A stretch of 60,707 nucleotides of DNA, taken from NCBI GenBank assembly GCA_937906345.1, contig CALCXY010000006.1, positions 1 through 60,707 on the forward strand. Reading direction: 5' to 3'. Every line of letters begins with the position of its first letter. The first letter of the stretch is position 1. Origin of the DNA: Candidatus Woesearchaeota archaeon (lineage in GTDB: Archaea; Nanobdellota; Nanobdellia; Woesearchaeales; CALCXY01). A model generated the notes under the pieces. The model saw only the letters and a list, made by a program, of their open reading frames with translations, searched no databases and was not told where the DNA came from. Shown here in pieces: positions 25,498 through 58,138 of this stretch. The position numbers and the translations under genes are program-made.

Positions 25498-25508
25498 TTT
25501 GATGTTTA

Positions 25509-26099
25509 TTACAATACTCCTTTTGTTGATGGAATTTTGTTGGTATTACGTGCATCTATACTTGCAGCTAGTCTTATTGCTCTTCCAAATGCTTTGAAAA
25601 TTGCTTCAATTTTGTGGTGATCATTTCTTCCATTATTCAATAGTTTAATGTGCAGGTTTAGCTTTGCATTTTGAGCTATAGCGTCAAAAAAATCATAAAC
25701 TAATTCTGTTGATACATCTCCTACTTTTTCTCTAGTGAATTCTGCTGTTTGGGAGAAGCTATACCTTCCTGCAAAATCTAAGCTTACAAGTGCTAATACT
25801 TCATCCATAGGCAAAATACTAGTGCCATATCTGTTAATTCCTTTTTTATCTCCTATAGCTTGCTGTAAGGCTTGTCCTAGCACTATTCCAATATCTTCTA
25901 CTGTGTGGTGTTCATCAATTTGAATATCTCCATTAGCTTTGATATCTAGATCTATTAAGCTGTGTTTTGAAAATAATTCTAACATATGATTTAGGAATTG
26001 GATTGGTGTAGTAATGCTGTTTTTACCAGTTCCATCTATGTTGAGTTGAATTTCAATATCTGTTTCATTTGTTTTTCTTTTAACATTTGCTTTTCTCAT
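25509..26099 (-). CDS. hisB: imidazoleglycerol-phosphate dehydratase (monofunctional)
   Basis: RKTNETDI, DEHHTVEDIGI and GRNDHHKIEAIFKAFG motifs. No HAD domain at the N-terminus. Confidence 0.95.
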   Translation of the reverse strand: MRKANVKRKTNETDIEIQLNIDGTGKNSITTPIQFLNHMLELFSKHSLIDLDIKANGDIQIDEHHTVEDIGIVLGQALQQAIGDKKGINRYGTSILPMDEVLALVSLDFAGRYSFSQTAEFTREKVGDVSTELVYDFFDAIAQNAKLNLHIKLLNNGRNDHHKIEAIFKAFGRAIRLAASIDARNTNKIPSTKGVL

Positions 26100-27826
26100 T
26101 TTAATACCTCCATAAGTTCATTAATTGTATTTACAACAATTTTAGCACCATTTTTTTTAAGTAATGATTTTAATGATGTAGAAGGGTTATTAGGTGGAAT
26201 AATTCCTAAAGGAGTGATACGTGCGTTTTTTGCAGCAGCCATATCATCTACACTATCTCCAATATAAACTGTGTTTGCTATTATTGATTTTGGAGTGTTT
26301 AAATCTTTTAACGCAGTATTTATAGAGTAGGGATTTGGTTTTGCTTTATTTTTAGGGTAATTTTCCATTGCAATAAGTGTTTCAAAATACTTCATTACTT
26401 TGAATTTTTTTAAGACGTAAAGTGCTTCTATTTTAGGTCTTCCAGTTACAATTCCTAACCTATATTGCTTATTTAGTTTTTCAAGATTTTTTTGAGAAAT
26501 AAGAAATGGTTCATTATTGATAAATCCATTTTTACCCCAATACAATGATTGAAATTTGTTGATGATTTTTGTTTTTGGAATATTTATTTTTTTGTCTTGA
26601 ATAATTTTTTCAGTAAGATCCCAATCATTATTGTAACTTCCTTTTTCTTTAAGTGCTTGAATATCTTGGTTTGTTATTTTTTGGTTTGTAAAAAATTCAG
26701 CTGTTTTTTTAATAGCGAGTCTATATGAATTAGAAACATCTACTAACACTCCGTCCATGTCAAATAATAAAACTGGTTTTGAGATGAGTGGTTTAATTTG
26801 TGTGATTAGTCTTTTACATTGGTCTAAAGTGCCTATTCCTAATCTTAAACAGTTTTTTAATAAAGGATAATTTGATCTATTTCTTACTAAGATATTATTT
26901 TCTTTAAGTTGGTTGTAAATAAAGATGCAGCTTTTTCCAAAATTAGCTATTACAAAGTTTGCTTTTGCAGGATAGGTTTTAATATTAAGTTTTTTTAATT
27001 CTGATAAAAGGTATTTTTTTCCTGCATTAACTTGTTTTACATACTTATTTACAAATTTTTGGTCTTTAATTGCAGCTTTTAGTGCTATTAACGCTAAAGC
27101 GTTTACACTGTAAGGAGATCTTACTTTTTGGAGAGTTGAGATAATTTCTTTATTAGATAAGATAGAACCTATTCTTAATCCTGCTAAGCCCCAAGCTTTT
27201 GAGAATGTTCTTGCTACAATAAGATTCTTGTATTTATTTATTAGATTTTTTGATGTTTTACCATAAAACTCATAATATGCTTCATCGATTAATACTATTG
27301 CGTTTTTTGCTTTTTTTAGAATCTTGATTATATCTTTTTGTTTAATATCACTAGAGGTAGGATTGTTTGGATTAACTAAAACAATTAATTTTGTTTTTTT
27401 GTTAATTGCTGAAAGGACTTTTTCAATTGGAAAGCTTAGATCTTGGTTGTAAAGTATATTGATATTTTTTGCACCAATCATTGACGCAGTAAGCTGGAAC
27501 ATTGCAAAAGTAGGACTTGGAATAATAACCTCATCATTTTCTTTGAGGAATGAGTTCATAACAACTTGTATTGCTTCATCAACTCCATTTGTTAGTAAAA
27601 TCTCTGATTTTTTAACTTTAAAGAAGTTTGAGATTATTTTATTTGATTCGTTGTATTCTGGGTAAGCTGCTATCTCCTCACTTTTAATATTTTTTAGTGC
27701 AGATAAAACTTTAGGAGAACATCCTATTGAATTTTCATTAAAATCTAAGCGAAGCTTGTTTTTTCTATTTTCTAAAGGAGGATCATACTTTTTCATTTTT
27801 TGAACGGTTATTATTGGTTTAATCAT
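26096..27826 (-). CDS. hisC: histidinol-phosphate aminotransferase fused to a C-terminal HAD-superfamily phosphatase domain
   Basis: N-terminal roughly 350 aa class-II aminotransferase (NPNNPT, RTFSKAWGLAGLRIG). C-terminal roughly 220 aa with HAD motifs LLFDMDGVLVD, VTGRP and GDSVDD. Confidence 0.85.
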   Translation of the reverse strand: MIKPIITVQKMKKYDPPLENRKNKLRLDFNENSIGCSPKVLSALKNIKSEEIAAYPEYNESNKIISNFFKVKKSEILLTNGVDEAIQVVMNSFLKENDEVIIPSPTFAMFQLTASMIGAKNINILYNQDLSFPIEKVLSAINKKTKLIVLVNPNNPTSSDIKQKDIIKILKKAKNAIVLIDEAYYEFYGKTSKNLINKYKNLIVARTFSKAWGLAGLRIGSILSNKEIISTLQKVRSPYSVNALALIALKAAIKDQKFVNKYVKQVNAGKKYLLSELKKLNIKTYPAKANFVIANFGKSCIFIYNQLKENNILVRNRSNYPLLKNCLRLGIGTLDQCKRLITQIKPLISKPVLLFDMDGVLVDVSNSYRLAIKKTAEFFTNQKITNQDIQALKEKGSYNNDWDLTEKIIQDKKINIPKTKIINKFQSLYWGKNGFINNEPFLISQKNLEKLNKQYRLGIVTGRPKIEALYVLKKFKVMKYFETLIAMENYPKNKAKPNPYSINTALKDLNTPKSIIANTVYIGDSVDDMAAAKNARITPLGIIPPNNPSTSLKSLLKKNGAKIVVNTINELMEVLK

Positions 27827-28404
27827 TTTTCACCTATAATTAGAAAATCACTTTCAAGAATTTTGTCATACACTTTTAATCCATTTTTTGTCATTGTAGA
27901 ACCAGTATACACAATATCAATAACCAAATCAGATAATCCTTGTTCATAGGTTGCTTCTATTGAACCATTAGCATACATTTTTTTAAAAGAAAATCCTTGT
28001 CGTTCTAAGAAGTTAAGATATTTTTTTGCTATTTTTTGATATTTTGAAGCGATGCAAACAGTAAGCGTTTTATTTATGGTTTTGATATCTTTGTTAATTG
28101 GGCCTAGTAAACATAAAGTGGGTTTGTTAAACATAGCGCTTGAATCTTTCCAAGGAATGGTTTTTAAGACTTTAAGAGATGTTTCCCTGTTTTCAAGGCA
28201 GTATTCTTTGTAAAGATCCCTTCCTGTTAATCCAATTGCTTTTTTTCCTTTTTCTTTTAATTGTTTTACCCAAAAAGGAACATCTTCTCCTCTTACTTCT
28301 AATAGATTAGAGGTATCACTTATGAAGGAAAGTCCTATTTCTCGATATTTCTTAAGCCCTGTGTTCTTTGGAACGACAATGATATAATCTTGAGTGTTTA
28401 TCAT
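27823..28404 (-). CDS. hisG: ATP phosphoribosyltransferase, short form
   Basis: GLTGRDL and DIVYTGSTMTKNGL motifs. At 193 aa it lacks the C-terminal regulatory domain. Confidence 0.9.
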   Translation of the reverse strand: MINTQDYIIVVPKNTGLKKYREIGLSFISDTSNLLEVRGEDVPFWVKQLKEKGKKAIGLTGRDLYKEYCLENRETSLKVLKTIPWKDSSAMFNKPTLCLLGPINKDIKTINKTLTVCIASKYQKIAKKYLNFLERQGFSFKKMYANGSIEATYEQGLSDLVIDIVYTGSTMTKNGLKVYDKILESDFLIIGEK

Positions 28405-28505
28405 TGTAGAAAGACCTCTGGATTGTTTAAGAAAAAATCATAAAAAACAAAATAAAGGAATAAAAGGGCGTTAGAGGAGAAGCAGAACCAAATAGGAAAA
28501 GGAAG

Positions 28506-28577
28506 GGCGGTAGAGGAGAATCGATCTCCTGCCATAGGATCCACAACCCTATATTCTGCCATTAAACTACTACCGCC
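28506..28577 (-). tRNA. tRNA-His (anticodon GUG) with encoded G-1
   Basis: Manual fold of the minus strand GGCGGTAGTAGTTTAATGGCAGAATATAGGGTTGTGGATCCTATGGCAGGAGATCGATTCTCCTCTACCGCC. The 7-bp acceptor GCGGTAG/CTACCGC plus G-1:C73, the anticodon stem TAGGG/TCCTA with loop TTGTGGA, and the T stem AGGAG/CTCCT all fit. Confidence 0.85.
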
Positions 28578-28801
28578 ATAAAGAAATCTGAATATATTAA
28601 GAATCGAGTTTACACAAGAAATAATTTTTGATTTATAATTGTTAAAAAGAATCGCCGAGCTATTTAGGATGAATACAACCAGCACTCACTTGTGCATTAA
28701 CCTCAATAGTTGTGTGTTTCATAGTATACTAGAAACTATAGGTTATATTTAAAGATTTCTATTTATTGATTTTGAGGGTGATTTTAGGTAATATTGTTGT
28801 T

Positions 28802-28967
28802 TTTTGAGGAGGATGCAGCCGCCAGCAAACAATAAGCTTGACTTTTATGCCCCACCTCCAAATTGATTAAGCCCAAGTCTCATATGTGACCTATTCTACA
28901 AGGGCTTAATCAATTTCCACCCATTGAATAAAGGAGCCTTTTTGCTTATCTGAAAAGCTCCTTTTTT
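28802..28967 (+). ncRNA. copy B of the conserved GC-rich element, with a 57-nt hairpin insertion and a terminator-like hairpin, upstream of hisS
   Basis: Shares its sequence blocks with 5221-5324. A 15-bp perfect hairpin AAATTGATTAAGCCC/GGGCTTAATCAATTT lies at 28860-28916. AGGAGC/GCTCCT plus T6 lies at 28932-28967. The possible micro-ORF at 28813-28866 reads MQPPANNKLDFYAPPPN. Confidence 0.4.
28932..28967 (+). terminator. hairpin plus T-run
   Basis: The stem is AGGAGC(C)TTTT paired with AAAAGCTCCT, followed by TTTTTT. It lies 55 nt upstream of the hisS ATG. Confidence 0.35.
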
Positions 28968-28990
28968 CAATCTTCTTTTTAACTAGATAC

Positions 28991-28999
28991 TTTTAAATA
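28991..28999 (+). promoter_or_regulatory. TATA-like box for hisS
   Basis: TTTTAAATA centred about 27 nt upstream of the ATG at 29022 (leaderless geometry). Confidence 0.35.
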
Positions 29000-29021
29000 C
29001 AATTACATTTCTTATGTATTT

Positions 29022-30257
29022 ATGCTAAAGAAAGCTAAAGGAACACTAGATTATTACCCAGAGGATGTGGGAATAAGGAATTACTTGTTTAATGTATTTA
29101 GAATGATCTCTGGAAGTTTTGGGTATAGTGAGGTGGAATCACCTGCATTTGAAGATTTATCATTATTAACTAAAAAATCTGGTGATGAGATTAAAAAACA
29201 AATATTTACATTGGAAAAAAAGGGCGAGGAATCATTAGGATTAAGGTTTGATTTAACAGTTCCATTAGCAAGAATGTTCATAGAAAAGCAAAAATCACTG
29301 CAAAAACCTGTTAAGTGGTCTTATTTAACAAGAATGTGGCGTTATGAAAAACCTCAACAAGGAAGATTAAGAGAATTTTACCAAGTAGGAGTTGAATTGT
29401 ATGGTTCTAAAGAAGCTATGAGTGATAGTGAAGTTATTAATTTAATCATTGATTTTCTTTTAGCATTAGGATTAAAACAAAGTGATTTTGAAGTTAGAAT
29501 TAATAATAGAAAATTATTGGAAGGTTTACTCTTAGAGATAGTAGATCCTGATATTATTATGGATGTTGTTAGGATTATTGATAAAAGATCAAAAATAAGT
29601 GAAGAAGATTTTGCAAGCGAATTAAAAAAATTAGGAGTAAAGGATGTTAAATCAATATCAAAATTAATTAATATTAAATTTTTTGAGGATTTAGAAAAAT
29701 TAGATAAGAATGCTTTAGCAACAGAGGGATATAATGAATTAAAAGCAATTTATCCTTTATTACAAAAAAAATATGTAACTATGAGCTTATCAACTGCTCG
29801 TGGATTAGATTATTATTCAGGAACTGTGTTTGAGGTTTTTGATAAAAAAGGAAAATTTAGGAGTATTTGTGGTGGTGGAAGGTATGATGACATGTTATCT
29901 GATTTTGGTGGTCAAGACTTAGGAGTAACTGGGTTTTCCATTGGAACAAGCACATTAACATTATTATTGCAAGATCGAAAACTTTTACCAGATGTAACTG
30001 AAGGTGTAGACTATTATATTGCTACAATAAAGGGAAATGAAAAAACTGCGTTAACTATAGCTACCAAATTAAGAAAAAAATATTCAGTTGATATTGATTT
30101 ATCAGGAAGAAATTTAGGAAATCAGTTTAAGTATGCAAATGCTATAAATGCTAAGTATGCCATAGTGGTTGGTGCTGATGAGGTTAAGTCAGGAAAAGTT
30201 AAGGTAAAAGAATTAGCAACTGGAAAAGAAAAAACAGTTGACATTAGAAGATTATGA
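29022..30257 (+). CDS. hisS: histidyl-tRNA synthetase
   Basis: Class II motifs (RYEKPQ.GR.REF.Q.G.E..G, GGGRYD) and a C-terminal anticodon-binding domain. Confidence 0.95.
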   Translation: MLKKAKGTLDYYPEDVGIRNYLFNVFRMISGSFGYSEVESPAFEDLSLLTKKSGDEIKKQIFTLEKKGEESLGLRFDLTVPLARMFIEKQKSLQKPVKWSYLTRMWRYEKPQQGRLREFYQVGVELYGSKEAMSDSEVINLIIDFLLALGLKQSDFEVRINNRKLLEGLLLEIVDPDIIMDVVRIIDKRSKISEEDFASELKKLGVKDVKSISKLINIKFFEDLEKLDKNALATEGYNELKAIYPLLQKKYVTMSLSTARGLDYYSGTVFEVFDKKGKFRSICGGGRYDDMLSDFGGQDLGVTGFSIGTSTLTLLLQDRKLLPDVTEGVDYYIATIKGNEKTALTIATKLRKKYSVDIDLSGRNLGNQFKYANAINAKYAIVVGADEVKSGKVKVKELATGKEKTVDIRRL

Positions 30258-33200
30258 TTTTATAATCTCAATTCTTAAATTTGTTCCGTATTTTTTGTTT
30301 TGTTCATCAAAAAATGTAGTGTCTTGTTGTAAGGTATCTGCGTTTCCAGATTTTGTCCAAGCAGTTCCCCAATGGAATTTTCTTTGTCTTCCAAATCCTA
30401 GCCCTCCAGCACTCATCATTTCTCTAGAATCTCTTCCAACTGCTTTATATCGAAAATTTCCTTCAGGTGTTTCTCCTGCAAATGAAGGTTTTGGATTAAA
30501 TTCCTCTAATGCTTCAAAATCATCTAATGAATGAGATAAAGCTTCAATATAATCTTGTGCAACTGGTTCATGAGGATTACTTAATGTTTTTGAAACAATA
30601 TCTGCATTTACCTTTCTACCTTGATATTCAGGTGCTTGATATCTTTTAGGTGTTCCATCTTGAACTCTAGCTGCGTTTTCAGCATTATGCATTCTTTCTG
30701 ATAATTGAGTTAGATCATATCCTAATTCTGCAATTTTTGTTCTGTCTTCTACGGCTGATTCAACTTTTTCAACGGCTTTTCCATAAACTTCATCTATCTT
30801 TGCAACTAAACCAGGATTAACATATACTTTTGATGCATCTTGAGAAATATTTTCAGCTAAAGCAAGTAATGCATCTCTACCATTAGAATCTATAACAAGA
30901 GATTCACTCACTAAAGCATTTAATGTGTGTTCATTAGTGATGTAAGATAATTGTTCTCTCACTTCTTGCTTTTGAGTTATTGGTGTAAATGTTTGTAATG
31001 TATTGTATGTATGTTCTGAAAATGCTAAGTCACAAACAGTTACTCCTCTATTTTCAAATACTAATGGATCTTTTAAGCCATAGCCTCTATGGGTTCTGTC
31101 AATTACATGATCAGTTGGAGTTTTTAGTGTATTTGGCCTTAAAGTAACTGTATGTTTTGCTTGTTCGTAAAAGAATACATCTGAATTTTTAATTTCTGCT
31201 GATACTTTTTTAACTTTCTCTAAATGTGCTTTAACAGTATCTAATTGTGCAGGTTTTCTAGCTAAATCAGATAATGCTTTATTTTCAGTAACTTTATCAT
31301 ACACAGTTTCTATAGCAGTTCTTTGATCATCACTTACATAGGTTGCATGAGTAAAAGGTGTAATATCAAATCTTGGATCATTTACCATTTCTGTATGCAT
31401 ACCAGAATCTGCTAAAATATTTGAAGTGTCTAATCCTAATTCTTTTGTTTGATTTAGAAAATCAATCTTTTTTTGTAAAGCAACAGGGATTTTTTTGTAT
31501 TTTTTTACTACACTTACAGCTTTAGCTAATTGAGTATCTTTTCCAGTATGGTAACTAGGCATAACTCCATGATCTAAAGCTTCTTCAATAACTTGTAATT
31601 CTTCTCTAAAAGCGTGGAATGATTTTGAGTTTGTGTAACCAGCATCTTTCAAAGCTTGTTTTTCCTGTTCACTATTGTCTTTTACTGCACGTAAATAAGT
31701 TCCTTTTAGTTTTTCTAAGCTTTTTTGGTGTTTTTCATATTCTTTTTCTGTTACAACAGTATAGGATCTACTCATAACAGCTCTTTTTTCAGTTTCAGAT
31801 TTATCATGTGCAATTTCCCATTGACTTCCTACTACAAATAAATGTTCTAAAGTTTCAATATCATCTTGAATTGAGTATGCATTTCTTAAAGCAATTCTAA
31901 CAGAGCCTTTTCTTGGATTATTATCGTGTTCATGATACTGATAATCAATTTTATTAAACATATCTCTAAGGAAAACAAAATCCTTTTTTGTCAGAATAGG
32001 GTTTGCTTTTTGTTCTTGAGATTTTGCATCAGCAATATGATCATTATCTGCTTTCCAAACTTTCCAAAGTGAATCTAATGTTTGTTCAATATCATTATCA
32101 GGGAAATAATTTAATTCCCATTCTCGTAAATGTGCGTTTCTTCTTGATTTGAATTTAGGAAGTGCTTCTAGAATTCCATCTGCTTCTGAACGTGTGATTC
32201 TATCTTCTTCAAGTTTTTCACCTATAGCTTTTGAAGTATATGGTAATTTCATACTTCTATCGTAATGAATTGGTGAAAATGATAATCCTAATACTTTATC
32301 TGGTGAGACTGATAATGCTAAGTCTTCTACTGATGCATATTCAATATCTTTTTTCCATTTACCCCAGTATGCTTCCATGTCTTCTTTGACAACTTGCATA
32401 GCACATTTAGTCATATCTCTCCAATCTAGGGGAGTTTCTACTATTGTATCTGATAGAATTCTATCAACTGCTACTTCAACTCTTGGATTAACAAGATCTT
32501 TAGTTTCAAACATAGAAGATAAAGTGTGTAAATAATCTCCTCTATGAAATTTATACACAATTCCATCAGCATCTTCTCCAAGAATTTCTTTCATATATTT
32601 TATTAATTGAACTGATGATTTTATTGTGCCATCAGCTATTGAATCTAGAAATTGGGGTTGTAGTCCTTTAGGTAAACCATAAACTGTATTTTTTAACAAA
32701 TCTGCAACATTTTGAGAAGGTCTTCTTTCACCTTGATCTTGAATTGGTCTTTTTTCAAATAATGCTTTAAATGTTTCATGGTCAAAATTAAGAGAATCCC
32801 ACATTCCACGGTAGTATAAGTAAAAATGTTGAGAAACTGTTAAGGGATCACTGTTTCTTTTTGCTCTTCTGCCAGGAAAAGCATTAAAATCAATATCCAC
32901 CCAATTTTTTAATGGTCTACTTGTAGCTTGTGAGGTTCTGTCATAATCATTATCTTCTGATTCATCTTTTTCTACATATGCTATCTCTGGTGCTTGTCTT
33001 AATTTTTTATTAGATGAAGTTCTTAGTTGACCTACATGGCCAAGCATATTTTTCCATTCATTAATGAGAATCTCATGATCCTCTTCTTCTTGGGACATAT
33101 AAGCTATGTTTTTCCAAGGATTTGAGTTTTTTACAAATAAAAGGTTTAGAACAGGCAGTAAAGCTGCTGGTATGTTGAATTGTGGGTTTGTTTTTTTCAT
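30252..33200 (-). CDS. 982-aa protein of unknown function (last gene of the island)
   Basis: Uninterrupted 2.9-kb ORF with a GAGGT about 12 nt upstream and a TATA-like ATTTATATAC in the 52-nt gap upstream. No P-loop, TM helix, signal peptide or known catalytic motif seen by eye. Confidence 0.8.
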   Translation of the reverse strand: MKKTNPQFNIPAALLPVLNLLFVKNSNPWKNIAYMSQEEEDHEILINEWKNMLGHVGQLRTSSNKKLRQAPEIAYVEKDESEDNDYDRTSQATSRPLKNWVDIDFNAFPGRRAKRNSDPLTVSQHFYLYYRGMWDSLNFDHETFKALFEKRPIQDQGERRPSQNVADLLKNTVYGLPKGLQPQFLDSIADGTIKSSVQLIKYMKEILGEDADGIVYKFHRGDYLHTLSSMFETKDLVNPRVEVAVDRILSDTIVETPLDWRDMTKCAMQVVKEDMEAYWGKWKKDIEYASVEDLALSVSPDKVLGLSFSPIHYDRSMKLPYTSKAIGEKLEEDRITRSEADGILEALPKFKSRRNAHLREWELNYFPDNDIEQTLDSLWKVWKADNDHIADAKSQEQKANPILTKKDFVFLRDMFNKIDYQYHEHDNNPRKGSVRIALRNAYSIQDDIETLEHLFVVGSQWEIAHDKSETEKRAVMSRSYTVVTEKEYEKHQKSLEKLKGTYLRAVKDNSEQEKQALKDAGYTNSKSFHAFREELQVIEEALDHGVMPSYHTGKDTQLAKAVSVVKKYKKIPVALQKKIDFLNQTKELGLDTSNILADSGMHTEMVNDPRFDITPFTHATYVSDDQRTAIETVYDKVTENKALSDLARKPAQLDTVKAHLEKVKKVSAEIKNSDVFFYEQAKHTVTLRPNTLKTPTDHVIDRTHRGYGLKDPLVFENRGVTVCDLAFSEHTYNTLQTFTPITQKQEVREQLSYITNEHTLNALVSESLVIDSNGRDALLALAENISQDASKVYVNPGLVAKIDEVYGKAVEKVESAVEDRTKIAELGYDLTQLSERMHNAENAARVQDGTPKRYQAPEYQGRKVNADIVSKTLSNPHEPVAQDYIEALSHSLDDFEALEEFNPKPSFAGETPEGNFRYKAVGRDSREMMSAGGLGFGRQRKFHWGTAWTKSGNADTLQQDTTFFDEQNKKYGTNLRIEIIKS

Positions 33201-33252
33201 GTTTTGTGATTACCTCTGGTGTATATAAATATGTGGGGTGATGTTGTTTACC

Positions 33253-35913
33253 TCATTTTAATAATTCTTGAACCACCTTTTTTTGAGCTACTCGCCCATT
33301 ATCTAATTCGTTTAAAGCATATGTAAAAACTTTTTGATATTTTCCTTGCATATCTGGTTTTGAACTTAAAACTCTATTAAGAGGTTTTCCATCATCTGTA
33401 ACTGTTTGAAAAACATCTAAAGTTTTTTGTTTATCTGCATCACTATATTTATTATCTTGAGCTATTTGTTTTCCAAGTTCTAATACTTTTGACCTTAATT
33501 TTTTATATCTACTTTTTGGATTTTTAGGTATAATACTATCATAAAAATCTTGTTCGTATTTTTCAACAGGAAATGAATTATTTGTATTTTCAGAATCTGA
33601 GGAATCATCATTATCATCTGGATCATTATCTGATTGGTCATTCTGTTCTTGACTACTAAGTGCTTTTAATTGGGGAATTAAATCTCCATTAGTGTCAATT
33701 GCTTCAAGTTCATCATTTTCATATTTATTTAGTTCTCTAAAAATGGTTTGTCTATTTCCGTTATTATAAGAAATTACTGCTTCTAATCCAATCCTATGTT
33801 TGTGTTCCTCATCTTGATAGGAACATAATGTTCCTAATACTGATTTATCTTCTATAGCTGCTTGGAGTACGGGTTTTCTTATACTCTCATTATTAATGTA
33901 ACGTAGGGTCCTATTATTATTTCTTATGAATTGGAAAACATTATTTTTCTTTCTTTCATTTCCTTCAAGGTCTTCTAGAGTTTCATAAATAAAAATTAAT
34001 GAAGGATCATTTTTTAACTCTTTTAGATTTTTAGCAAAATTATATTTATGTATGAATGATTCAGGGTTTGAGATGTAATCTGAAACACGAAGAGCATAAT
34101 CTGTATTTTCCTGAGCAACTTTGACTAATGTATCATAAACAGGTGATTCCATTCCGAAAAGTATGTTGTGGAAAACTTCAGAAGTCATCCATATATTAAA
34201 ATATTTATCAGCAATATTTGGATGAATTTTAGATAGGGTAAGAGACCTTTTACAAACTTCTTCTAAATGGATATCACACAATCTTACAACAGGATAATAA
34301 GGTAAATTATCATATTGAGGAATAAGATTTTCCATTTGTCCTACAGTTTCTTCAATATCTCTCTTTATACCCATTATAAAATTTCTACTAGCTTTTTCTG
34401 AGAATGCTTTTAATTCATGATAGGTTTCATTTATTAAAGTAACACAACGATTTCGACCTCCTATATGATTTAATTCTATAACAATTAAATCTGCCACTAA
34501 AGCATGTAAACTCTGTTTATCATCAGATTCTTCTTTTAATACAATTTTAGCCTTTAAATCCATAATGTATTCGTTTATATCGGGGTGATTAGTAAATTTA
34601 TTTTTGATTTCCAATAATTTTTTGGCTTCACTTGCGTGATCAGATAACCTCAATTCAAACTCATTAAGATCAAATGGATTATCGATAAATCTAAATGAGT
34701 TAATTAAATGTCTGTACAGTTCCTTAGTTCCATTTTCATACCTACAGAACAAATTATTGAGGAATAATTGATCTTCGCTCGCCCGGAACACTAGGTCTAC
34801 TTCAATATGTGGTATGTATCCTTGAACTTCAAAATATCTATTAACCAACCCTTCATATATATTTAGGATTTCCTTAGGTGAAAAATATTTAAAAGGTTTG
34901 GGTGGACCATCATGTATTGGTGGCCATGTGGATTTAAATCTTTTATAAGCTTCTAATTCCGAAGGACTCCAAAATAAAGGAAAGTCTGATTCTTTTTTTA
35001 ATTTATCATCTTCCTTTTCAATTTCTGGTATGAATGTTTCAATTCCGGATTTTTTCTCTAATTCTTCACCCTCATCATAAACAAAAACCTTATCAGGAAT
35101 TTTTGCAGTGTTTAATCCTCTTCTTCCATTAGTTTTTTTACCTTTTTCAATAGGTTTTCTATTTTGAGCTTTTGCTAATGCAGTTTTAAGACCTCCAACT
35201 AAAGATTCACTTAATTCTTCAAGAGTAATTTTATTACATTCATAATCTTCACCAATGGGTTTTTGAGCACTAAATTCTAATTTTCCCTCATTATATAATG
35301 TAGTTAATCGATCTTTATAGATATCCATTCCATAAAAAGTTTGTAATGTTTTCATAGGTGCTACAATAATTACTTTAGATTTAGGATCTATTTCTCTAAA
35401 AGCGCCAATATACCTTTCAGTTTCACTCATTAATCCTTTGTAATCTTTATTTCCTTTGACTTTTAATTCTAAAATTACATAGTGTTCATCTTTATCTGTT
35501 GTAACAATGTCAGTTCTTCCTATAGGAAAACTTACTTCAGCTGCAATTGGTTTAAGATCTGGTTGGACTAATTTTACTCTATCATCTAACATTAAATAAT
35601 CTCTAAATGCATCTTCGTTTCTAGCAATTTTTTTTGGTTTTCTATTTTCATAGGCTATCATCTGATACGTTCCTCTACAGATAATATCTAATGGTTCTCT
35701 ACGTGCTTCACCTAAATTTAAATTTGCACAAATTTGAGCCAGATTTCCTAAATTATCAGATATTTCAATAGGGACATTAGTAGGATTATCTTTTAGAATA
35801 CTAAGAACTTCATCCATATCTTGAGTAATCTCTGTTCTATGAGATTCATTTTCTTCTTCTTGAAGTCTAGAATTATTAATTTCAATTCTTTTTACAATCT
35901 CATCTAGTTTCAT
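33253..35913 (-). CDS. 886-aa protein with an N-proximal NucS/DUF91-like PD-(D/E)xK nuclease motif
   Basis: Residues 131-172 read IGRTDIVTTDKDEHYVILELKVKGNKDYKGLMSETERYIGAF, matching the G.xD......D.....vviElK.......v.Q..rY pattern. The rest is unrecognisable, and an acidic Asp/Ser/Asn tract lies near aa 760. Confidence 0.8.
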   Translation of the reverse strand: MKLDEIVKRIEINNSRLQEEENESHRTEITQDMDEVLSILKDNPTNVPIEISDNLGNLAQICANLNLGEARREPLDIICRGTYQMIAYENRKPKKIARNEDAFRDYLMLDDRVKLVQPDLKPIAAEVSFPIGRTDIVTTDKDEHYVILELKVKGNKDYKGLMSETERYIGAFREIDPKSKVIIVAPMKTLQTFYGMDIYKDRLTTLYNEGKLEFSAQKPIGEDYECNKITLEELSESLVGGLKTALAKAQNRKPIEKGKKTNGRRGLNTAKIPDKVFVYDEGEELEKKSGIETFIPEIEKEDDKLKKESDFPLFWSPSELEAYKRFKSTWPPIHDGPPKPFKYFSPKEILNIYEGLVNRYFEVQGYIPHIEVDLVFRASEDQLFLNNLFCRYENGTKELYRHLINSFRFIDNPFDLNEFELRLSDHASEAKKLLEIKNKFTNHPDINEYIMDLKAKIVLKEESDDKQSLHALVADLIVIELNHIGGRNRCVTLINETYHELKAFSEKASRNFIMGIKRDIEETVGQMENLIPQYDNLPYYPVVRLCDIHLEEVCKRSLTLSKIHPNIADKYFNIWMTSEVFHNILFGMESPVYDTLVKVAQENTDYALRVSDYISNPESFIHKYNFAKNLKELKNDPSLIFIYETLEDLEGNERKKNNVFQFIRNNNRTLRYINNESIRKPVLQAAIEDKSVLGTLCSYQDEEHKHRIGLEAVISYNNGNRQTIFRELNKYENDELEAIDTNGDLIPQLKALSSQEQNDQSDNDPDDNDDSSDSENTNNSFPVEKYEQDFYDSIIPKNPKSRYKKLRSKVLELGKQIAQDNKYSDADKQKTLDVFQTVTDDGKPLNRVLSSKPDMQGKYQKVFTYALNELDNGRVAQKKVVQELLK

Positions 35914-36038
35914 TTTAAAAACCTCTTTATAGCTTCTTCAACTAAATGAGATTTATTTCTATAAGGGCTATTTTTAGCTTGTTCTCTAATCTTGACAGCT
36001 AATTCTTCATCTATTGAAATAGTAAATACTTGTTTCAT
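35910..36038 (-). CDS. 42-aa ribbon-helix-helix (CopG/Arc-like) protein
   Basis: Not in the ORF track. Sequence MKQVFTISIDEELAVKIREQAKNSPYRNKSHLVEEAIKRFLK, fitting beta strand, helix A, helix B. ATGA overlaps occur at both ends (36035-36038 and 35910-35913). Confidence 0.6.
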   Translation of the reverse strand: MKQVFTISIDEELAVKIREQAKNSPYRNKSHLVEEAIKRFLK

Positions 36039-39022
36039 TCTTTAGCTCCTTGATTCATATATTTCATAAAATTATTTGGATTATTTATTTTTCTATCCAA
36101 CATTCTATCTAAAAAGTCATCTAATGGCATATCCCATTGTTTTAAATTTTCATACGTTTTTTTAAGAGTTAATCTTTCTGGGAATGTTAGATAATTTTCT
36201 TTTTCAGTAGATATGGTTTCAATAACTTTTTGTATATTAGTTGGAATTAAATGTGCTTTATTTACAAATCTATCTTCTGCTATGTCATAATAATGTGATT
36301 CCATTGGTAGATCATAGGGGGTTGTAATTTTTGATTCTAAGAAGTCATTAATGTCTTGATCATCTTCTTTGAAATCAGTGTTAAATGTTCTAGGATCAAA
36401 AAATTCTCCTGTTAATTCAGCATATTCTCCTGGAGAATGTTCTATACCAAGATTTCTAGCTATTAATCTATTATATAACGAATCAATTGCTTCCAATTCA
36501 TATGTTGAGTCTGGTTTTTGGTCAAGTTCTTTGATGTAATTTAGTACCTGTCTTGTATTATCATCATTACTTGATTGTTCACTAAGATTAACAAATTCTA
36601 CATCAATATGTTGGAATCCATTTACTAAATGATAGATTTGTAAAGGATCAAAATCATGTAGATCTACAATTTCTTGGTATTTTTCAATTGTAGATTTAAT
36701 ATTATGAACAGCTCCTCCATATTTAACATCTCCAATTCTTGGTTTTGAGTCATTTGGTGGCCAATACAGGTCTGGAAAACTTAGTCGAGGAGATTGAAAC
36801 ATAGTTTCTGGAATAACATGTTCTCCAGCTCTTAATAGATTGTAAGTTACTACTTTTTGTAAAGCTCTCCCTTTTGCAAAATTATGTTCTAAAGTGTGTC
36901 CATTTTCATTTCCTTGATATAAAAGTTGAAAGAATACTTTGTTTGTATCTTCTTGGTTAGGTGTTTTCTCTAAAGCATGGAAATATAATTCTTGTAGTAC
37001 ATTTCTATTTCTTGATACAGGGGTTTGTCTAGGATCATGTTCGGGTACATCTTGAGGAAGTTGAAGTTTATCTTCAAGTAATTCAACATTAGTGGGATGG
37101 CCATTTGTGAATGTTACTTTTGCATTATTGCCTGCGAATTTTTCCAGTCCCTGACAAGTTAGGCCAAAAGTAGATAATAATCCTGATGAGGGTATAGATC
37201 TTTCTACTGAGATTGATGCTTTTTCTAACATTCCACACAAAATTCTTGCCAAGTTTGTATTATAAACATGTTTTATATAAATTGTTTGACCCTGGTAGAT
37301 TAATTTTACTTTACCTCCTTTAAATTCTTGATAATTGGGATGATCTTTTATTTCATTCAAAAGTTCTAGAATCGTGAGTTCTGAGGTTTCTATTTTACCT
37401 ACGAGGTCAATATCCTGTTTGACTTTTGGAATGCCATTTGTATGACAGTATTTTTCTGAGTATATAAGGGCCCTTGTTGGCTTTCCTTTATCAAAGGTAA
37501 CCTTGGTGGGAGAATTACTGTCGTTGGATTGTCTAATCCATCTCAATCCAAATGCGCTAAAGTTCCCTGAGGAGGGTAAATGTTTTTCAACATCGACTGT
37601 GGTTAGCTTTAATTTTTGTCCAAGTAATCTTTCAAGGGTGGGTCTTCCTGTTCCGTTTCCTTGTTTGATTTTGTAGCTTTGTCCTTGATAGTGTATTGTG
37701 ATGGCTTCTCCCTTTCTTTTTTTGTATTCAGGATCTTGTTGTATTGTGTGTATAAGTTCTGGAATTGTAAGTTCTGTGGTTGAAGTTTGGTTAATTAAAT
37801 TTATTTCATCCTCAATTTTTGCTCTTCCATCAGAATGGGGAAAAATGTTGGAACATACTCCTATCTCAACTGGACAATCCATTTCATATGTTATTCTTAT
37901 ATTTTTAGCAGCCAGTCTCTTGTTGGAATATGGAGTCATTCCGAACGCGCTAAATTCACCTGTGGATGGTAACTTCCTTTCGAAAGAGACTTTACTTTTT
38001 TTTAATTCGGATCCTAATAATTTTTCAAGGGCAGTCCTTCCTGTTCCGTTTCCTTGTTTGATATTGTAGTGTTGTCCTTGGTAGTGTATTTTTATGGATT
38101 TTCCTTTTCTTTTTTTGTATTCAGGATCTTGTTGTATTGTGTGTATAAGTTCTGGAATTGTAAGTTCTGTGGTTGAAGTTTGGTTAATTAAATTTATTTT
38201 TTCTTCAATTTTTGCTCTTCCATCAGAATGATGATATATATCAGAGTAAATTTCACATTTACAGGGGTGCCCATTAATAAAAGTCGTTCTTGTAAATCTT
38301 TCTTTTCTATTTCGGTGGCCATTCCAATATAATGTAAATGCTGATAAATTGCCTGAGGAGGGTAAACGTTTTTCAACATCTACTGAAGTTTGCCTTAATT
38401 TCTGTCCCAGTAGTCTTCGCAATCCTGAACGGACATTTTCAGATGCTTGTTTAATTGTGTATGTTTGTCCTTGGAAATGTATTGTGACAGTTTCTCCTTT
38501 TATTTGTTCGTATCCTGGATCTTCTTGTATTGTGTGTATAAGTTCTGGAATTGTAAGTTCTGTAAATAAGTTGTTACTTTTATTATCAAATCTTTCCTGT
38601 ATTTTAAATGTTCTGTCATTATTTTTGAATTTATCACTATATATTATAAAATTTATGGGATCTCCTTGATCAAAAGTTATTTTGGAATGTTTATTCCCAT
38701 ATCTTGATAATCCACTCCATGATAATCCAAATAAATTCATGGCTCCTGATGGGTTTAATTTTTTCTCACATTCTATTTTTGATTTTTTTAGTTCAATTGC
38801 AAGACGTTTTTCTAAACTTATTTTTGCCTTTTGTTTTGATTTTTTTATTTGGTATGTTTCTCCTCTATAGTGTAATGTAACAGTTTCACCAGTTCTTTCT
38901 GCATAAGTAGGATGAGCTTGTATTTGTCTGATAAGACTTACTACTTGGTCTTCTTCTATAGGTGTATCTACATCAGGTTCTAAAACTAAATTATCTATAG
39001 ATGTTGTTTCCATTTTTACCAA
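36035..39022 (-). CDS. 995-aa protein with five tandem ~131-aa modules plus a unique ~350-aa C-terminal region
   Basis: Uninterrupted 3-kb ORF. The module consensus is ELTIPELIHTIQ.DP.Y...KGE..TIHYQGQ.Y.IKQ......L..LLG..LK...V.VEK.LPSSG..SAFGL.........T F..G.P....IYS......G..KI...I.L. Confidence 0.85.
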   Translation of the reverse strand: MVKMETTSIDNLVLEPDVDTPIEEDQVVSLIRQIQAHPTYAERTGETVTLHYRGETYQIKKSKQKAKISLEKRLAIELKKSKIECEKKLNPSGAMNLFGLSWSGLSRYGNKHSKITFDQGDPINFIIYSDKFKNNDRTFKIQERFDNKSNNLFTELTIPELIHTIQEDPGYEQIKGETVTIHFQGQTYTIKQASENVRSGLRRLLGQKLRQTSVDVEKRLPSSGNLSAFTLYWNGHRNRKERFTRTTFINGHPCKCEIYSDIYHHSDGRAKIEEKINLINQTSTTELTIPELIHTIQQDPEYKKRKGKSIKIHYQGQHYNIKQGNGTGRTALEKLLGSELKKSKVSFERKLPSTGEFSAFGMTPYSNKRLAAKNIRITYEMDCPVEIGVCSNIFPHSDGRAKIEDEINLINQTSTTELTIPELIHTIQQDPEYKKRKGEAITIHYQGQSYKIKQGNGTGRPTLERLLGQKLKLTTVDVEKHLPSSGNFSAFGLRWIRQSNDSNSPTKVTFDKGKPTRALIYSEKYCHTNGIPKVKQDIDLVGKIETSELTILELLNEIKDHPNYQEFKGGKVKLIYQGQTIYIKHVYNTNLARILCGMLEKASISVERSIPSSGLLSTFGLTCQGLEKFAGNNAKVTFTNGHPTNVELLEDKLQLPQDVPEHDPRQTPVSRNRNVLQELYFHALEKTPNQEDTNKVFFQLLYQGNENGHTLEHNFAKGRALQKVVTYNLLRAGEHVIPETMFQSPRLSFPDLYWPPNDSKPRIGDVKYGGAVHNIKSTIEKYQEIVDLHDFDPLQIYHLVNGFQHIDVEFVNLSEQSSNDDNTRQVLNYIKELDQKPDSTYELEAIDSLYNRLIARNLGIEHSPGEYAELTGEFFDPRTFNTDFKEDDQDINDFLESKITTPYDLPMESHYYDIAEDRFVNKAHLIPTNIQKVIETISTEKENYLTFPERLTLKKTYENLKQWDMPLDDFLDRMLDRKINNPNNFMKYMNQGAKE
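37102..38944. repeat. in-frame tandem coding repeats (five units, period about 393 nt) inside the 995-aa gene
   Basis: A 91-nt perfect direct repeat occurs at 37716-37806 and 38109-38199 (offset 393 nt). A partial third copy lies near 38510, and more diverged copies lie at both ends. Confidence 0.8.
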
Positions 39023-39052
39023 TATTTAACTGTTAACAAGAATTATTAGTTC

Positions 39053-39062
39053 TATATAAAGT
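39053..39062 (-). promoter_or_regulatory. TATA-like box for the island operon
   Basis: The minus strand reads CTTTATATAG, centred about 35 nt upstream of the ATG at 39022. Confidence 0.3.
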
Positions 39063-39164
39063 TATGTATTTTTCTTACTTAAAAGTAGTGAATAATTATC
39101 AATAAATAAAGGGTAAATAAGTTCACCGCACCCTTTTATAATCTTAAAAAAATAAAATTAAAAG

Positions 39165-39311
39165 ATGGAATTATCTCAAAAAGAAATTAATATCAAGAAA
39201 GCAATAATTCTCTATGAAGCTGATAAAGTCAATATTGTCCAAGCAGCTGAGATTGCAGAGTTAAGTGTAGAGCATATGTTGCATTTCATAAGTGAGAGAA
39301 AACTTAGATGA
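39165..39311 (+). CDS. UPF0175-like small HTH protein (antitoxin-like, 48 aa)
   Basis: Not in the ORF track. MELSQKEINIKKAIILYEADKVNIVQAAEIAELSVEHMLHFISERKLR follows the A..LYe.gk.s...AAe.ag.s...f...l pattern of UPF0175/COG2886. It is divergent from the island operon. Confidence 0.5.
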   Translation: MELSQKEINIKKAIILYEADKVNIVQAAEIAELSVEHMLHFISERKLR

Positions 39312-40202
39312 TTAATCAACTTTAGTAGAAACAATAATCTTATCCTCAACTAAGACAGAGTGTTCTGCTTGGGCAACCATTCCTTTGTTTTTATCAACTA
39401 AAGGAGGAAAATCTTTTATAATATCTAATTGTAATAACTCTTTTAGTGCAAAGTTAACTTTACCTTCATGATGTTTATCAGTAAGCCAACGTGTTGTAAA
39501 TGGTAAGCCTTTAAATTTTTCAATTTCTTTGAGAATATTTCTTGTAATTAAAGATCTAACAGGTTTTTTGTTGACAAGCATGTAAATTGTGTTTGGAGAA
39601 GATTCATAAATAACTCCAGCACCATTAGTTGCAAAGGGTTCAATAGCTATTCTCATTCCTTTTTTTAAGGTTTCTGTGTTTCCATTATCATAATTAGGAA
39701 CTGTTGGTGAAGTATGAATGTTAAATGTGTCTAAACCATGACCTGAGAGGTTTCTTATTGGACTTAGATTATGAGAGGCAATAGCATCTTTAATTGCTTT
39801 ACCAATTTCATTTAAAGGTGTGCCAATTTGTACAACTTTTAAAGCAGCTTTCAATCCATCTTGTGCAGCTTTTACAATATCAGAGTATTTTCCAGATAAA
39901 TCAATAGTATCTGCGTTATCTCCAATAGCACCATTATAACAAACACCGACATCAATACAACATAATTGATCATCAAAAATAATTTCATCTTTAGGGTGAG
40001 CACAATAATGTGCAGCTATTTCATTGCAGCTAATTTGAGATGGGAAAGCAGGAATAGCTTTATTATCATAAATAAATTTATCCAGTTTATTTGAAACTTC
40101 TAACATTGTTGCGCCTTTTTTAACTAAACTTTTACCTAAGGCTAATGTTTCAGCTGCTATTTTACCAGCTTTTTTCCAATCTTCTAGAGTTGGGTTTTCC
40201 AT
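39312..40202 (-). CDS. map: methionine aminopeptidase, type 2 (archaeal)
   Basis: W..AG.I, D.G....G.I.D.A.T, HGL....H and EH..LV motifs. About 297 aa from the ATG at 40202. Confidence 0.9.
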   Translation of the reverse strand: MENPTLEDWKKAGKIAAETLALGKSLVKKGATMLEVSNKLDKFIYDNKAIPAFPSQISCNEIAAHYCAHPKDEIIFDDQLCCIDVGVCYNGAIGDNADTIDLSGKYSDIVKAAQDGLKAALKVVQIGTPLNEIGKAIKDAIASHNLSPIRNLSGHGLDTFNIHTSPTVPNYDNGNTETLKKGMRIAIEPFATNGAGVIYESSPNTIYMLVNKKPVRSLITRNILKEIEKFKGLPFTTRWLTDKHHEGKVNFALKELLQLDIIKDFPPLVDKNKGMVAQAEHSVLVEDKIIVSTKVD

Positions 40203-40336
40203 AAGTCGAAAGAACAAATGGAATTATATAAAGGTAATGGTAAGTTTTTGATTAGAGTCTCTTGTTTCTCCGAAATTCTTGAAAAAATTGATGTTTTTTT
40301 TGAGAAGATTATATTAGAAATAAAGAATAAATAAAA

Positions 40337-40383: not shown

Positions 40384-40432
40384 AACATAAATCAAGCTTA
40401 CAAAGTTTAAAAACTTTGTGGTTTTGAGTAAT

Positions 40433-40539
40433 GGCGTGGTACCCTAATCCGGTATGGGGCCTGACTGAAAATCAGGTGGGTTTTCCGACCTTTACGGGTT
40501 CGAAAAATCTACGGAACTTCGAAAGTCCCGTCCACGCCG
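40433..40539 (+). tRNA. type-II (long variable arm) tRNA with G73, apparent anticodon GAA and a putative 21-nt intron in the T-loop
   Basis: Manual fold:
- acceptor GGCGTGG/CCACGCC
- D arm CCC/GGG with loop AATCCGGTA
- anticodon stem CCTGA/TCAGG with loop CTGAAAA
- 17-nt variable arm TGGGTTTTCCGACCTTT
- T stem ACGGG/CCCGT separated by 28 nt (TTCGAA + 21 nt + T). Confidence 0.65.
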
Positions 40540-40592
40540 CTCAATCCCTTAAAATAGTAACTCTTATATATCCTAACCTAACTTCTTCCCTT

Positions 40593-41021
40593 ATGACAGT
40601 TAAGAAAGGCGATAAAATTAAAGTTGAATACACAGGAACATTAGAAGATGGTACTGTTTTTGACTCTAGTGAGAAACATGGCAAAGCTTTAGAGTTTGAA
40701 GTAGGATCAGGCCAAATGATTAAGGGTTTTGATGCTGCAGTTATTGGTATGAAAAAAGATGAAGAAAAAACCATTAACTTAGAACCAGAAGATGCTTATG
40801 GCCCTCAAAACGCTGAGATGATTAAAAATATTCCTAGGGAGCAGTTTCCTAAAGAACAAGAACCAAAAGAAGGTATGGTATTATTACTCCAAACTCCAGA
40901 AGGAGGCCAATTTCCTGTTAAAGTTGTTGGTGTTACAGATAAAGAAGTGAGTTTAGATCTAAATCATCCTTTAGCTGGTAAGAAATTAACTTTTAAGTTG
41001 AAGGTTGTTGGGATTAATTAA
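40593..41021 (+). CDS. FKBP-type peptidyl-prolyl cis-trans isomerase (short, SlyD-like)
   Basis: V.V.YTGTLEDGTVFDSS........F.VG.GQMIKGFD.AV.GM and LAGK.L.F motifs. The start was set to ATG 40593 because the track ORF runs through the tRNA. Confidence 0.85.
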   Translation: MTVKKGDKIKVEYTGTLEDGTVFDSSEKHGKALEFEVGSGQMIKGFDAAVIGMKKDEEKTINLEPEDAYGPQNAEMIKNIPREQFPKEQEPKEGMVLLLQTPEGGQFPVKVVGVTDKEVSLDLNHPLAGKKLTFKLKVVGIN

Positions 41022-42160: not shown

Positions 42161-42784
42161 TTAATTTTTTAATAATTTCGGAATATCTCTCAAATCATCA
42201 ATTATAAAATCAGCATTCATTTCTTCAAAAACATCTTTAGGGCAGACTCCACTTAGATATGCAATAAATGTAATCTTTGCTTTTTGAGCTGGGATTAAAT
42301 CATAATCAGAATCTCCAATGAAAATACACTCTTCAGGTTTGTATTCTTTTAATATAGGATCAAAGATTCTTGGATCTGGTTTATGGTAAGGTAAAGAATC
42401 ATCTCCATAAATTGCTTTAAAGTTTTCTATAGGTAATGAGGATTTTTCCATTAATTCTAAAATAGAATCTTTTTCTCTAGAAGAAATAATAAAGAGATCA
42501 TATTTTTTGGAAAGTTGAAGAATTACTTCTTTAGCACCTTTAACAGGAGTTCTATCAATAATATCATCTACTTCAACATAAGCAGAATAAAAATCTTCAA
42601 ATTTAATATCTGGCCAGATTTTAGAAACCATAGTTTTCCAAGGCAAACCTGCATATTTTAATAATTCAATATCTGAAGGAACTTTAATATTCAATTTTTT
42701 AGCAGCTTCTTTATGAGAATGCAGATAAATATCTTTATAGCTAACTAAAGTGTCATCAAAATCAAAGATAATTGCTTTAATCAT
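42161..42784 (-). CDS. HAD-superfamily phosphatase (candidate ARPP phosphatase of riboflavin synthesis)
   Basis: HAD motifs IIFDFDDTLV, SSR and GDSDYD. Overlaps ribD by 8 nt. Confidence 0.75.
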   Translation of the reverse strand: MIKAIIFDFDDTLVSYKDIYLHSHKEAAKKLNIKVPSDIELLKYAGLPWKTMVSKIWPDIKFEDFYSAYVEVDDIIDRTPVKGAKEVILQLSKKYDLFIISSREKDSILELMEKSSLPIENFKAIYGDDSLPYHKPDPRIFDPILKEYKPEECIFIGDSDYDLIPAQKAKITFIAYLSGVCPKDVFEEMNADFIIDDLRDIPKLLKN

Positions 42785-44227: not shown

Positions 44228-44306
44228 ATTGTAAAAGAATACTGTGTTGCTTAAAAATCTTGTTGTTGTGTATGTATTTAAAAAGGTTTGATATTTTATT
44301 TGAATA

Positions 44307-45673: not shown

Positions 45674-45707
45674 TATAAACTTATTTAAGAATTACCCTAT
45701 TTAAAAT

Positions 45708-56092: not shown

Positions 56093-56094
56093 TC

Positions 56095-58134: not shown

Positions 58135-58138
58135 AAAA

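Follow-up and report, generated by a model that had tools for sequence, protein, structure and literature searches.

What kind of system, if any, is encoded by a group of very large archaeal genes that stand side by side between two housekeeping genes? The question is raised by contig CALCXY010000006.1 of a Candidatus Woesearchaeota archaeon (assembly GCA_937906345.1), of which the whole 60,707-nt stretch analysed here is referred to as the window. A 9-kb island between hisS and map encodes, in order and on the minus strand, a protein of 995 residues (p995), a protein of 42 residues, a protein of 886 residues (p886) and a protein of 982 residues (p982). An earlier note, made from the sequence alone, had described the large genes as unrecognisable giants accompanied by a ribbon-helix-helix (RHH) micro-gene and a nuclease motif, and had proposed the island as a candidate new system, perhaps one of defence, abortive infection or mobility. 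The island itself is a variant of a familiar theme, a variable nuclease-encoding locus. More notable is p995, the member of a modular protein family that has not been reported previously, is extremely rare and spans the domains of life. We describe below the family and its probable nuclease-like domain, the other products of the island, the insertion of the island between its neighbours and the explanations that may account for it.

The p995 module array and its family

The layout of p995 comprises five tandem modules, then a PD-(D/E)xK-like domain and then a conserved helical tail. The five modules, which the earlier note had recognised, are 128–131 aa long and 33–53 % identical to one another, and a repeat search gave the array a DNA period of 393 nt; the repeats are too diverged for Tandem Repeats Finder, which reported no array at the DNA level. 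The array is basic (net charge +24) and the C-terminal third of the protein acidic (−22). In modules M2–M4, residues 1–70 are homogenised, with a non-synonymous divergence (dN) of 0.17–0.33, and residues 71–131 are diverged (dN 0.5–0.9), a contrast that fits a putative homogenised scaffold combined with a diverged surface. An AlphaFold2 (AF2) model of a single module (pLDDT 86.7, pTM 0.79) folds as a helix, a hairpin and a helix, followed by a beta-meander, and Foldseek returned no analogue of this fold, the best matches having E = 0.3 in the PDB and E = 0.015 (TM-score 0.31) in BFVD. A profile of 25 modules from the family found nothing meaningful among PDB sequences, and a match to MpAFP in the PDB sequence search was set aside as a repeat artefact with no significant stretch. 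Matches to the N-terminal dimerisation domain of Lsr2 recurred at module positions ~22–59 (for instance window ~38380–38495); they are weak and all non-significant (Pfam E = 0.065, PHROG E = 0.063, PDB 4e1p E = 1.4). The N-terminal domain of Lsr2 is a hairpin followed by a helix, like that part of the module.

The relatives of p995 were found with the five modules as a profile in an exhaustive HMMER search of 1.8 billion cluster representatives, which retrieved 12 further proteins, about 10 of them credible, with 3–5 modules in each family member. The bacterial protein P0004 (1020 aa) is collinear with full-length p995 (27.7 % identity over 1027 aa, E = 4e-100); it was missed by a word-indexed homologue search of low sensitivity, in which p995 matched only itself. 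The same C-terminal region as in p995 follows the array in P0004, P0007 and P0008, the array is fused to a class I S-adenosylmethionine (SAM) methyltransferase in P0005, P0006 and P0010, and it stands alone in P0012, P0013 and P0014. These architectures suggest that the module array is a common part carrying a swappable effector. Of generic class I type, the fused methyltransferases match Methyltransf_11 and have small-molecule or Rrp8-type enzymes as their nearest PDB entries; P0005 has, by eye, no DPPY/NPPY motif. On these grounds the idea that nuclease and methyltransferase members pair in the manner of a restriction-modification system was rejected.

The C-terminal domain of p995

The signature E...PD...(D/E)xK is present in the C-terminal regions of four homologues, p995, P0004, P0007 and P0008, which are 23–32 % identical. 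Residues K717, G718, Q722, P738-E739, F749-P750-D751, K767 and G769 are invariant, and position 765 is occupied by D or E. The AF2 model calculated on the alignment of these four sequences (pLDDT 82.9, pTM 0.78) contains an alpha-beta-beta-beta-alpha-beta core and then a helical domain, the core being followed by a conserved tail of ~180 aa. The top Foldseek matches of the model are nearly all PD-(D/E)xK nucleases, none of them with E < 0.07; they include Card1 (prob 0.98, root-mean-square deviation 3.5 Å over 93 columns), EcoO109I, Nt.BspD6I, Can2, the R2 endonuclease, Cap4, Exo5, BbvCI, BamHI, Cas4 and McrC. Searches of Pfam and of PDB sequences gave no match to this region. The domain is, from its motif and its modelled core, a probable PD-(D/E)xK-like nuclease, and with the NucS-type domain of p886 described below the island would encode two giant proteins that carry nuclease domains. 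A sixth, degenerate module was also considered for p995 and was replaced by the nuclease-domain reading in view of the conserved motif and the AF2 core.

The description of the large proteins as unrecognisable therefore needs to be divided: for p995, distantly related proteins and a further nuclease-like domain, overlooked in the earlier note, were found, while p982 and the remainder of p886 gave no matches.

The small regulator, p886, p982 and the UPF0175-like gene

The 42-aa protein matches Pfam RHH_1 over residues 5–41 with 23.5 bits, above the cut-off of 20.5 (E = 5.2e-5), as expected from its earlier description, and the Arc-like repressor of PHROG with E = 1.3e-4; on these profile matches it is a minimal ribbon-helix-helix protein of CopG/Arc size. 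The NucS-like motif proposed for p886 is likewise borne out by Pfam NucS_C (25.7 bits against a cut-off of 24) and by NCBIfam NucS (E = 7.8e-10), the latter match covering model positions 100–217 of 250 only and scoring 38 bits where the family cut-off is 216. D135, E149 and K151 of p886 align with D160, E174 and K176 of Pyrococcus NucS (PDB 2vld), which we take to be the catalytic residues of that enzyme. The ~700 residues after the NucS domain have no match and contain an acidic low-complexity stretch (residues ~700–800, net charge −16), and the C-terminus, ...QKKVVQELLK, is by eye without the aromatic pair of a PIP box.

For p982, no domain match was obtained and the PDB sequence search gave nothing usable. 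In 5.8 billion protein clusters, p886 and p982 matched only themselves, in a word-indexed search that excludes close relatives only; distant relatives are possible, given that such a search missed the 28 %-identical relative of p995. The three large proteins had no match in phages or plasmids by tblastn, p886, p982 and the module profile had none in scans of viral contigs, and metagenome scans with the alignment of the p995 C-terminal region and with p982 returned nothing. No paralogy connects p995, p886 and p982. The large proteins are free of transmembrane segments, as had been stated, their maximal Kyte–Doolittle hydropathy over 19 residues (KD19) being at most 1.2. The accompanying claim that signal peptides are absent holds for p995 and p886 and is insecure at the N-terminus of p982 (33099–33200), which begins MKKTNPQFNIPAALLPVLNLLFVKNS; here a short basic segment precedes a weakly hydrophobic one of ~16 residues (KD19 max 1.19) that could be a signal or anchor sequence.

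A 48-aa open reading frame (ORF) lies divergently to p995, abutting the map stop codon. Its likeness to UPF0175 is seen in the Pfam E value of 3.9e-5, yet the score of 23.7 bits stays below the cut-off of 27.9; it also matches the PADLOC candidate model PDC-S70 (E = 5e-6). The ORF is short, looks truncated and may be a remnant.

Operon structure and insertion between hisS and map

The coordinates, strands and lengths of the island genes are identical in the ORF list and in the earlier note, and a co-directional, translationally coupled module is indeed present: p995, the RHH gene and p886 are chained by ATGA overlaps, the two junctions reading ...gaATGAaa... and ...aaATGAaa.... Of the two start codons of p995, ATG 39013 is the likelier, because the public database copy of the protein has 992 aa. 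The gap between p886 and p982 contains the TATA-like and Shine–Dalgarno-like signals previously ascribed to it (TTTATATA and GAGGT) and probably serves as a separate promoter for p982, from which the transcript would be nearly leaderless. Upstream of p995, CTTTATATA is inferred to function as its archaeal TATA-like box, and the T-runs of the same region may terminate map. The genes for p995, p886 and p982 are the three largest ORFs of the window and are all adjacent; by our own arithmetic, an open frame of ~900–1000 codons has a chance of ~1e-35 in DNA of 30 % GC, which is the GC content of the window. The 3′ end of the p982 gene overlaps the hisS stop codon by 6 nt, and 4-nt overlaps are common throughout the compact window, where many gene ends overlap.

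The flanks of the island are housekeeping genes, with the his operon, tRNA-His and hisS on one side and map, NUDIX, HAD and riboflavin genes on the other, and the best relatives of hisS (49–56 % identity) belong to metagenome-assembled genomes (MAGs) labelled Nanoarchaeota, Nanoarchaeia or Woesearchaeota. A comparison of the hisS–map interval in related genomes, which the earlier note had recommended, revealed variable contents in L004, L010, L011 and L012 (table 1). Since hisS and map abut or enclose other genes in the relatives, the 9 kb represent an insertion, and none of 20 related loci encodes island-like proteins. No integrase, transposase, replication or capsid gene occurs within ~10 kb on either side, the borders have neither flanking direct repeats nor a tRNA, and a repeat search for an att site or a target duplication was negative. 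The GC content and codon usage are host-like (relative synonymous codon usage, r = 0.86–0.97 against a background mean of 0.84). The island is thus a lineage-specific insertion and not a recognisable mobile element. It is 100 % identical in a Tara Oceans marine assembly (L001) and in an independent Logan assembly (L002), and the p995 of a population variant differs by a single residue. Both contigs end inside the p995 repeat array (window ~37700–38200), where the 393-nt DNA period, up to 84 % identical, is enough to fragment short-read assemblies.

Co-occurrence and the question of defence

Models of PADLOC-DB v2 (restriction-modification, Gabija, Hachiman, Lamassu, Shedu, Zorya and others) gave no match at E ≤ 1 to p995, the RHH protein, p886 or p982, in agreement with the statement that no catalogued defence family is represented. 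The large proteins matched only NucS_C in Pfam and NCBIfam and had no PHROG match. The earlier note had itself chosen co-occurrence of the genes outside this genome as one of the points on which its proposal should be judged, and this comparison covered the relatives of p995, the only island gene with detected relatives. In nine of nine neighbourhoods the p995 relative is a lone gene, with no RHH, NucS-like or p982-like neighbour (tblastn at E ≤ 1 in the loci with DNA), so a conserved multi-gene system is not supported and the four-gene combination appears to be a local assembly. All nine neighbourhoods look bacterial (LNT, the dcw cluster, Lon/ClpX, a TonB plug); P0010, for example, is encoded on the opposite strand between murB and ftsQ-ftsA-ftsZ in the dcw cluster. 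Two relatives carry a taxon label, one from a Myxococcaceae MAG and one from a Bdellovibrionota MAG, and both groups are known as predatory lineages. The candidate new defence system is consequently downgraded: the operon is real and lineage-specific, co-occurrence, as followed for p995, gives it no support, and a defence role is unproven, such a function of the island being pure inference.

Table 1. Coordinates of the island, its parts and the loci compared with it (window positions unless another locus is named; M1–M5, modules of p995)
Feature	Position	Strand	Remarks
hisS (flank)	29022-30257	+	
p982 gene	30252-33200	-	
p886–p982 spacer	33201-33252	-	52 nt; TTTATATA ~21 nt upstream of p982 ATG, plus GAGGT
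p886 gene	33253-35913	-	
NucS_C-like domain of p886	35347-35700	-	residues 72-189; D135, E149, K151
42-aa ORF (RHH)	35910-36038	-	
p995 gene	36035-39022	-	995 aa from TTG 39022; 992 aa from ATG 39013
PD-(D/E)xK-like core of p995	36587-36892	-	residues ~711-812; E739, D751, K767 invariant, D765 D/E
Module array	36998-38953	-	five ~131-aa modules
M5	36998-37381	-	
M4	37382-37774	-	
M3	37775-38167	-	
M2	38168-38560	-	
M1	38561-38953	-	
p995 upstream region	39023-39164	-	TATA-like box CTTTATATA ~40 nt before ATG; T-runs
48-aa UPF0175-like ORF	39165-39311	+	
map (flank)	39312-40217	-	
hisS–map interval of L004			empty; gene ends overlap tail-to-tail
hisS–map interval of L011			165-nt gap
hisS–map interval of L012			one unrelated gene, 184 aa
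hisS–map interval of L010			three ordinary genes: reductase, ABC ATPase, permease
Bacterial p995 relative in L027	10001-12892		single gene among housekeeping genes
Bacterial p995 relative in L025	10001-13459		single gene among housekeeping genes
Bacterial p995 relative in L029	8001-9188		single gene among housekeeping genes

Other features of the window and of a related locus

The his biosynthesis operon (~22900–30257) adjoins tRNA-His (28505–28576) and hisS and includes gene fusions, namely a 576-aa aminotransferase with a HAD domain and hisF with hisIE. Riboflavin genes lie across the island at 42777–46172 (ribD and two DMRL-synthase paralogues). Such biosynthetic capacity for histidine and riboflavin seems unusual for a Nanoarchaeota/Woesearchaeales-like genome. 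The window also carries an intron-containing tRNA of 107 nt at 40433–40539 on the plus strand (Rfam, 48.6 bits), which was missed by ARAGORN; as it overlaps the 5′ end of a 196-aa FKBP-like ORF (40431–41021), the true start of that ORF must be further downstream. A 778-aa ORF (48564–50900, minus strand) joins an amino-acid permease (residues 161–549) to a class I SAM methyltransferase domain (~616–727). The GC content climbs from ~0.30 to 0.36–0.38 across the last ~6 kb (54000–60707). In locus L012, an ORF extension upstream of hisS (9767–10000) resembles, by eye, a small RHH/CopG-type protein (...LYPNISEAIRDAVRRLITG) and is unrelated to the island.

Proposed explanation and alternatives

The explanation that we put forward, tentatively and at somewhat short of an even chance, is that of a lineage-specific accessory operon inserted between the convergent hisS and map genes of a marine DPANN archaeon of Nanoarchaeota/Woesearchaeales-like affinity. 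The operon's products would most probably target nucleic acids and serve in genetic conflict, for instance in defence or addiction. The RHH protein probably autoregulates the operon: its dimer would repress the promoter upstream of p995 and keep two potentially toxic nucleases at a low level and in fixed proportion. The basic array of p995 would serve for target recognition, the conserved N-terminal halves of the modules acting as a scaffold and the diverged, beta-rich C-terminal halves as a specificity surface, and would position the C-terminal nuclease on DNA or RNA. A second, NucS-type cut would be given by p886, whose remainder of ~700 residues may be a sensor or a partner-binding region, and p982 would be an accessory expressed from its own promoter.

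Several findings weigh against this explanation. The stand-alone context of the p995 relatives in 9/9 cases leaves a joint function without co-occurrence support, and the ATPase, helicase and sensor domains that are typical of defence systems are all missing. The module is no more than a putative nucleic-acid binder, the arrays of the bacterial relatives are nearly neutral, and the methyltransferases fused to such arrays belong to the generic class I type and not to the DNA methylases. The nuclease call for p995 combines a motif, a four-sequence AF2 model and Foldseek matches that are individually non-significant (best E = 0.07), and ~1,700 residues (p886 200–886 and all of p982) are matchless. 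Host-like codon usage and the absence of mobility genes and flanking repeats point in the same direction.

These findings leave room for other explanations, among which that of no joint function is rather unlikely: the genes would be unrelated, fast-evolving and lineage-specific, gathered in a permissive spot, and their operon-like packing would reflect the compaction of DPANN genomes. The relatives of p995 never share neighbours with the window, the three large proteins are not paralogues, 4-nt overlaps are frequent in the window and the hisS–map gap of the relatives holds unrelated ordinary genes, all of which accord with chance assembly; it is nevertheless hard to regard as unconnected two different PD-(D/E)xK domains that bracket a DNA-binding regulator in one coupled unit, and the three largest ORFs of the window are adjacent. 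An unlikely explanation, too, is a locus for host or prey interaction, in which the p995 array binds a host target and the C-terminal domain damages or modifies host nucleic acids, a device used by predatory Myxococcota and Bdellovibrionota as well as by an episymbiotic DPANN archaeon. The two taxon-labelled relatives and the bacterial-looking contigs of all the others are in line with it, as are the N-terminal array with exchanged C-terminal enzymatic domains, reminiscent of polymorphic effectors, and the precedent of SPEARE, giant DPANN proteins with restriction-enzyme domains (PMC6642349). Yet p995 and p886 have no signal peptide or transmembrane segment, Pfam detects no secretion-system or adhesion domains, and the link to predators comes from two labels, the neighbouring proteins on the other contigs having yielded no classification; moreover, typical toxin tips are C-terminal, whereas the probable nuclease domain of p995 is internal, with a conserved tail of 180 aa behind it, and the downstream 42-aa RHH protein is not of immunity-protein type.

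Selfish DNA offers another account, which we consider decidedly unlikely: the island would be the remnant or cargo of an integrated plasmid or virus, or a selfish addiction or homing-type set, with the RHH protein as a CopG-like plasmid regulator, the UPF0175-like ORF as a decayed antitoxin and the nucleases maintaining the element. The 9 kb are inserted precisely where, in relatives, the two gene ends abut or overlap, at a site of differing contents; the genes are orphan or very rare, an RHH protein of CopG size and a truncated UPF0175-like ORF are present, and the bacterial relatives of p995 are also single inserted genes, one of them on the opposite strand inside the dcw cluster. Against this stand the lack of any integrase, transposase, replication or capsid gene within ~10 kb, of flanking direct repeats and of a border tRNA, a GC content and codon usage indistinguishable from those of the host, the absence of anything similar among phage, plasmid or viral contigs, and the identity of the island in the independent assemblies L001 and L002. 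Very improbable is housekeeping DNA repair, in which p886 would be a divergent NucS/EndoMS mismatch endonuclease and the other proteins its partners. The NucS_C match and the aligned D, E and K triad speak for it, but only the nuclease half of the model is matched (100–217 of 250; 38 versus 216 bits), p886 has 886 rather than ~250 aa and no NucS N-terminal domain, and its gene is absent from the relatives' locus and from 5.8 billion protein clusters.

Beyond the accessory-operon explanation that we favour, a bolder version of it is conceivable and decidedly improbable. The ~130-aa module would be a new, evolvable nucleic-acid-recognition unit, of which 3–5 copies read a target, with specificity set by the diverged beta-rich halves, and deliver a nuclease or a methyltransferase. 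Such array-effector enzymes would be a weapon, shared by predatory bacteria and an episymbiotic archaeon, against the DNA or RNA of other cells, here wired through the RHH protein to a second, NucS-type nuclease as a conflict module of a kind not known before. If the favoured explanation is true, the DPANN archaea, most of whose accessory genes are uncharacterised, gain a nuclease-based conflict module, and with it comes a rare family (about a dozen cluster representatives in 1.8 billion). The module on which this family is built is modelled with confidence, has no structural relative and recurs in fusion with different enzymatic heads; a modular recognition array whose effectors can be exchanged would be of interest for protein engineering as well as for the study of predatory and symbiotic microbes. 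If the explanation is not true, the island is a caution against calling a defence system from a nuclease motif and closely packed operon genes.

Comparison with known systems

Known systems resemble the island in parts. Residues 72–189 of p886 correspond to the C-terminal PD-(D/E)xK catalytic domain of NucS/EndoMS (Pfam NucS_C, formerly DUF91; PDB 2vld and 5gke), whereas the N-terminal half-barrel domain for DNA binding and dimerisation is missing, ~700 residues are added and the gene is not a conserved core gene. Shedu (DUF4263) and other few-gene nuclease systems share with the island a NucS-related PD-(D/E)xK nuclease in a variable spot; the three large proteins have, however, no DUF4263 or PADLOC match, and the nuclease domain of p886 is N-terminal. 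The RHH gene overlapping a downstream nuclease gene by 4 nt recalls the RHH-regulated type II toxin-antitoxin and CopG modules, from which the island differs in that the 42-aa RHH protein has no toxin-binding extension, p886 with its 886 aa falls in no toxin family, and the RHH gene is preceded by and coupled to a 995-aa gene.

For p995, the signature, the modelled core topology and the proposed logic of recognition and cleavage resemble those of PD-(D/E)xK nucleases of restriction-endonuclease type that are fused to separate recognition domains, such as the type IIS enzymes Nt.BspD6I and PaqCI, Card1/Can2 and the R2 endonuclease, but without a significant sequence or profile match and with Foldseek E ≥ 0.07; its five-module putative recognition part has no structural analogue, and it has neither a CARF or SAVED sensor nor a methylase partner. 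Very large DPANN proteins with a domain of restriction-enzyme type, and nearest relatives in predatory or parasitic bacteria, are a trait that the island has in common with SPEARE. SPEARE proteins of Nanohaloarchaeota and other DPANN archaea are membrane-anchored, have 3,000–8,500 aa and find their closest matches in parasitic or predatory bacteria; their domains comprise laminin-G and other adhesion domains, protease domains and type III restriction-enzyme domains (PMC6642349). The island proteins differ in having no segment of transmembrane grade and none of the SPEARE Pfam domains. With TALE, PUF and PPR proteins, and with engineered fusions of such arrays to nucleases, the p995 family has in common tandem modules, conserved and diverged module parts and varied fusions. 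The repeats of TALE, PUF and PPR proteins are helical and 33–36 aa long, whereas the modules of p995 are alpha/beta units of ~130 aa that occur 3–5 per protein, and the likeness is one of functional analogy only.

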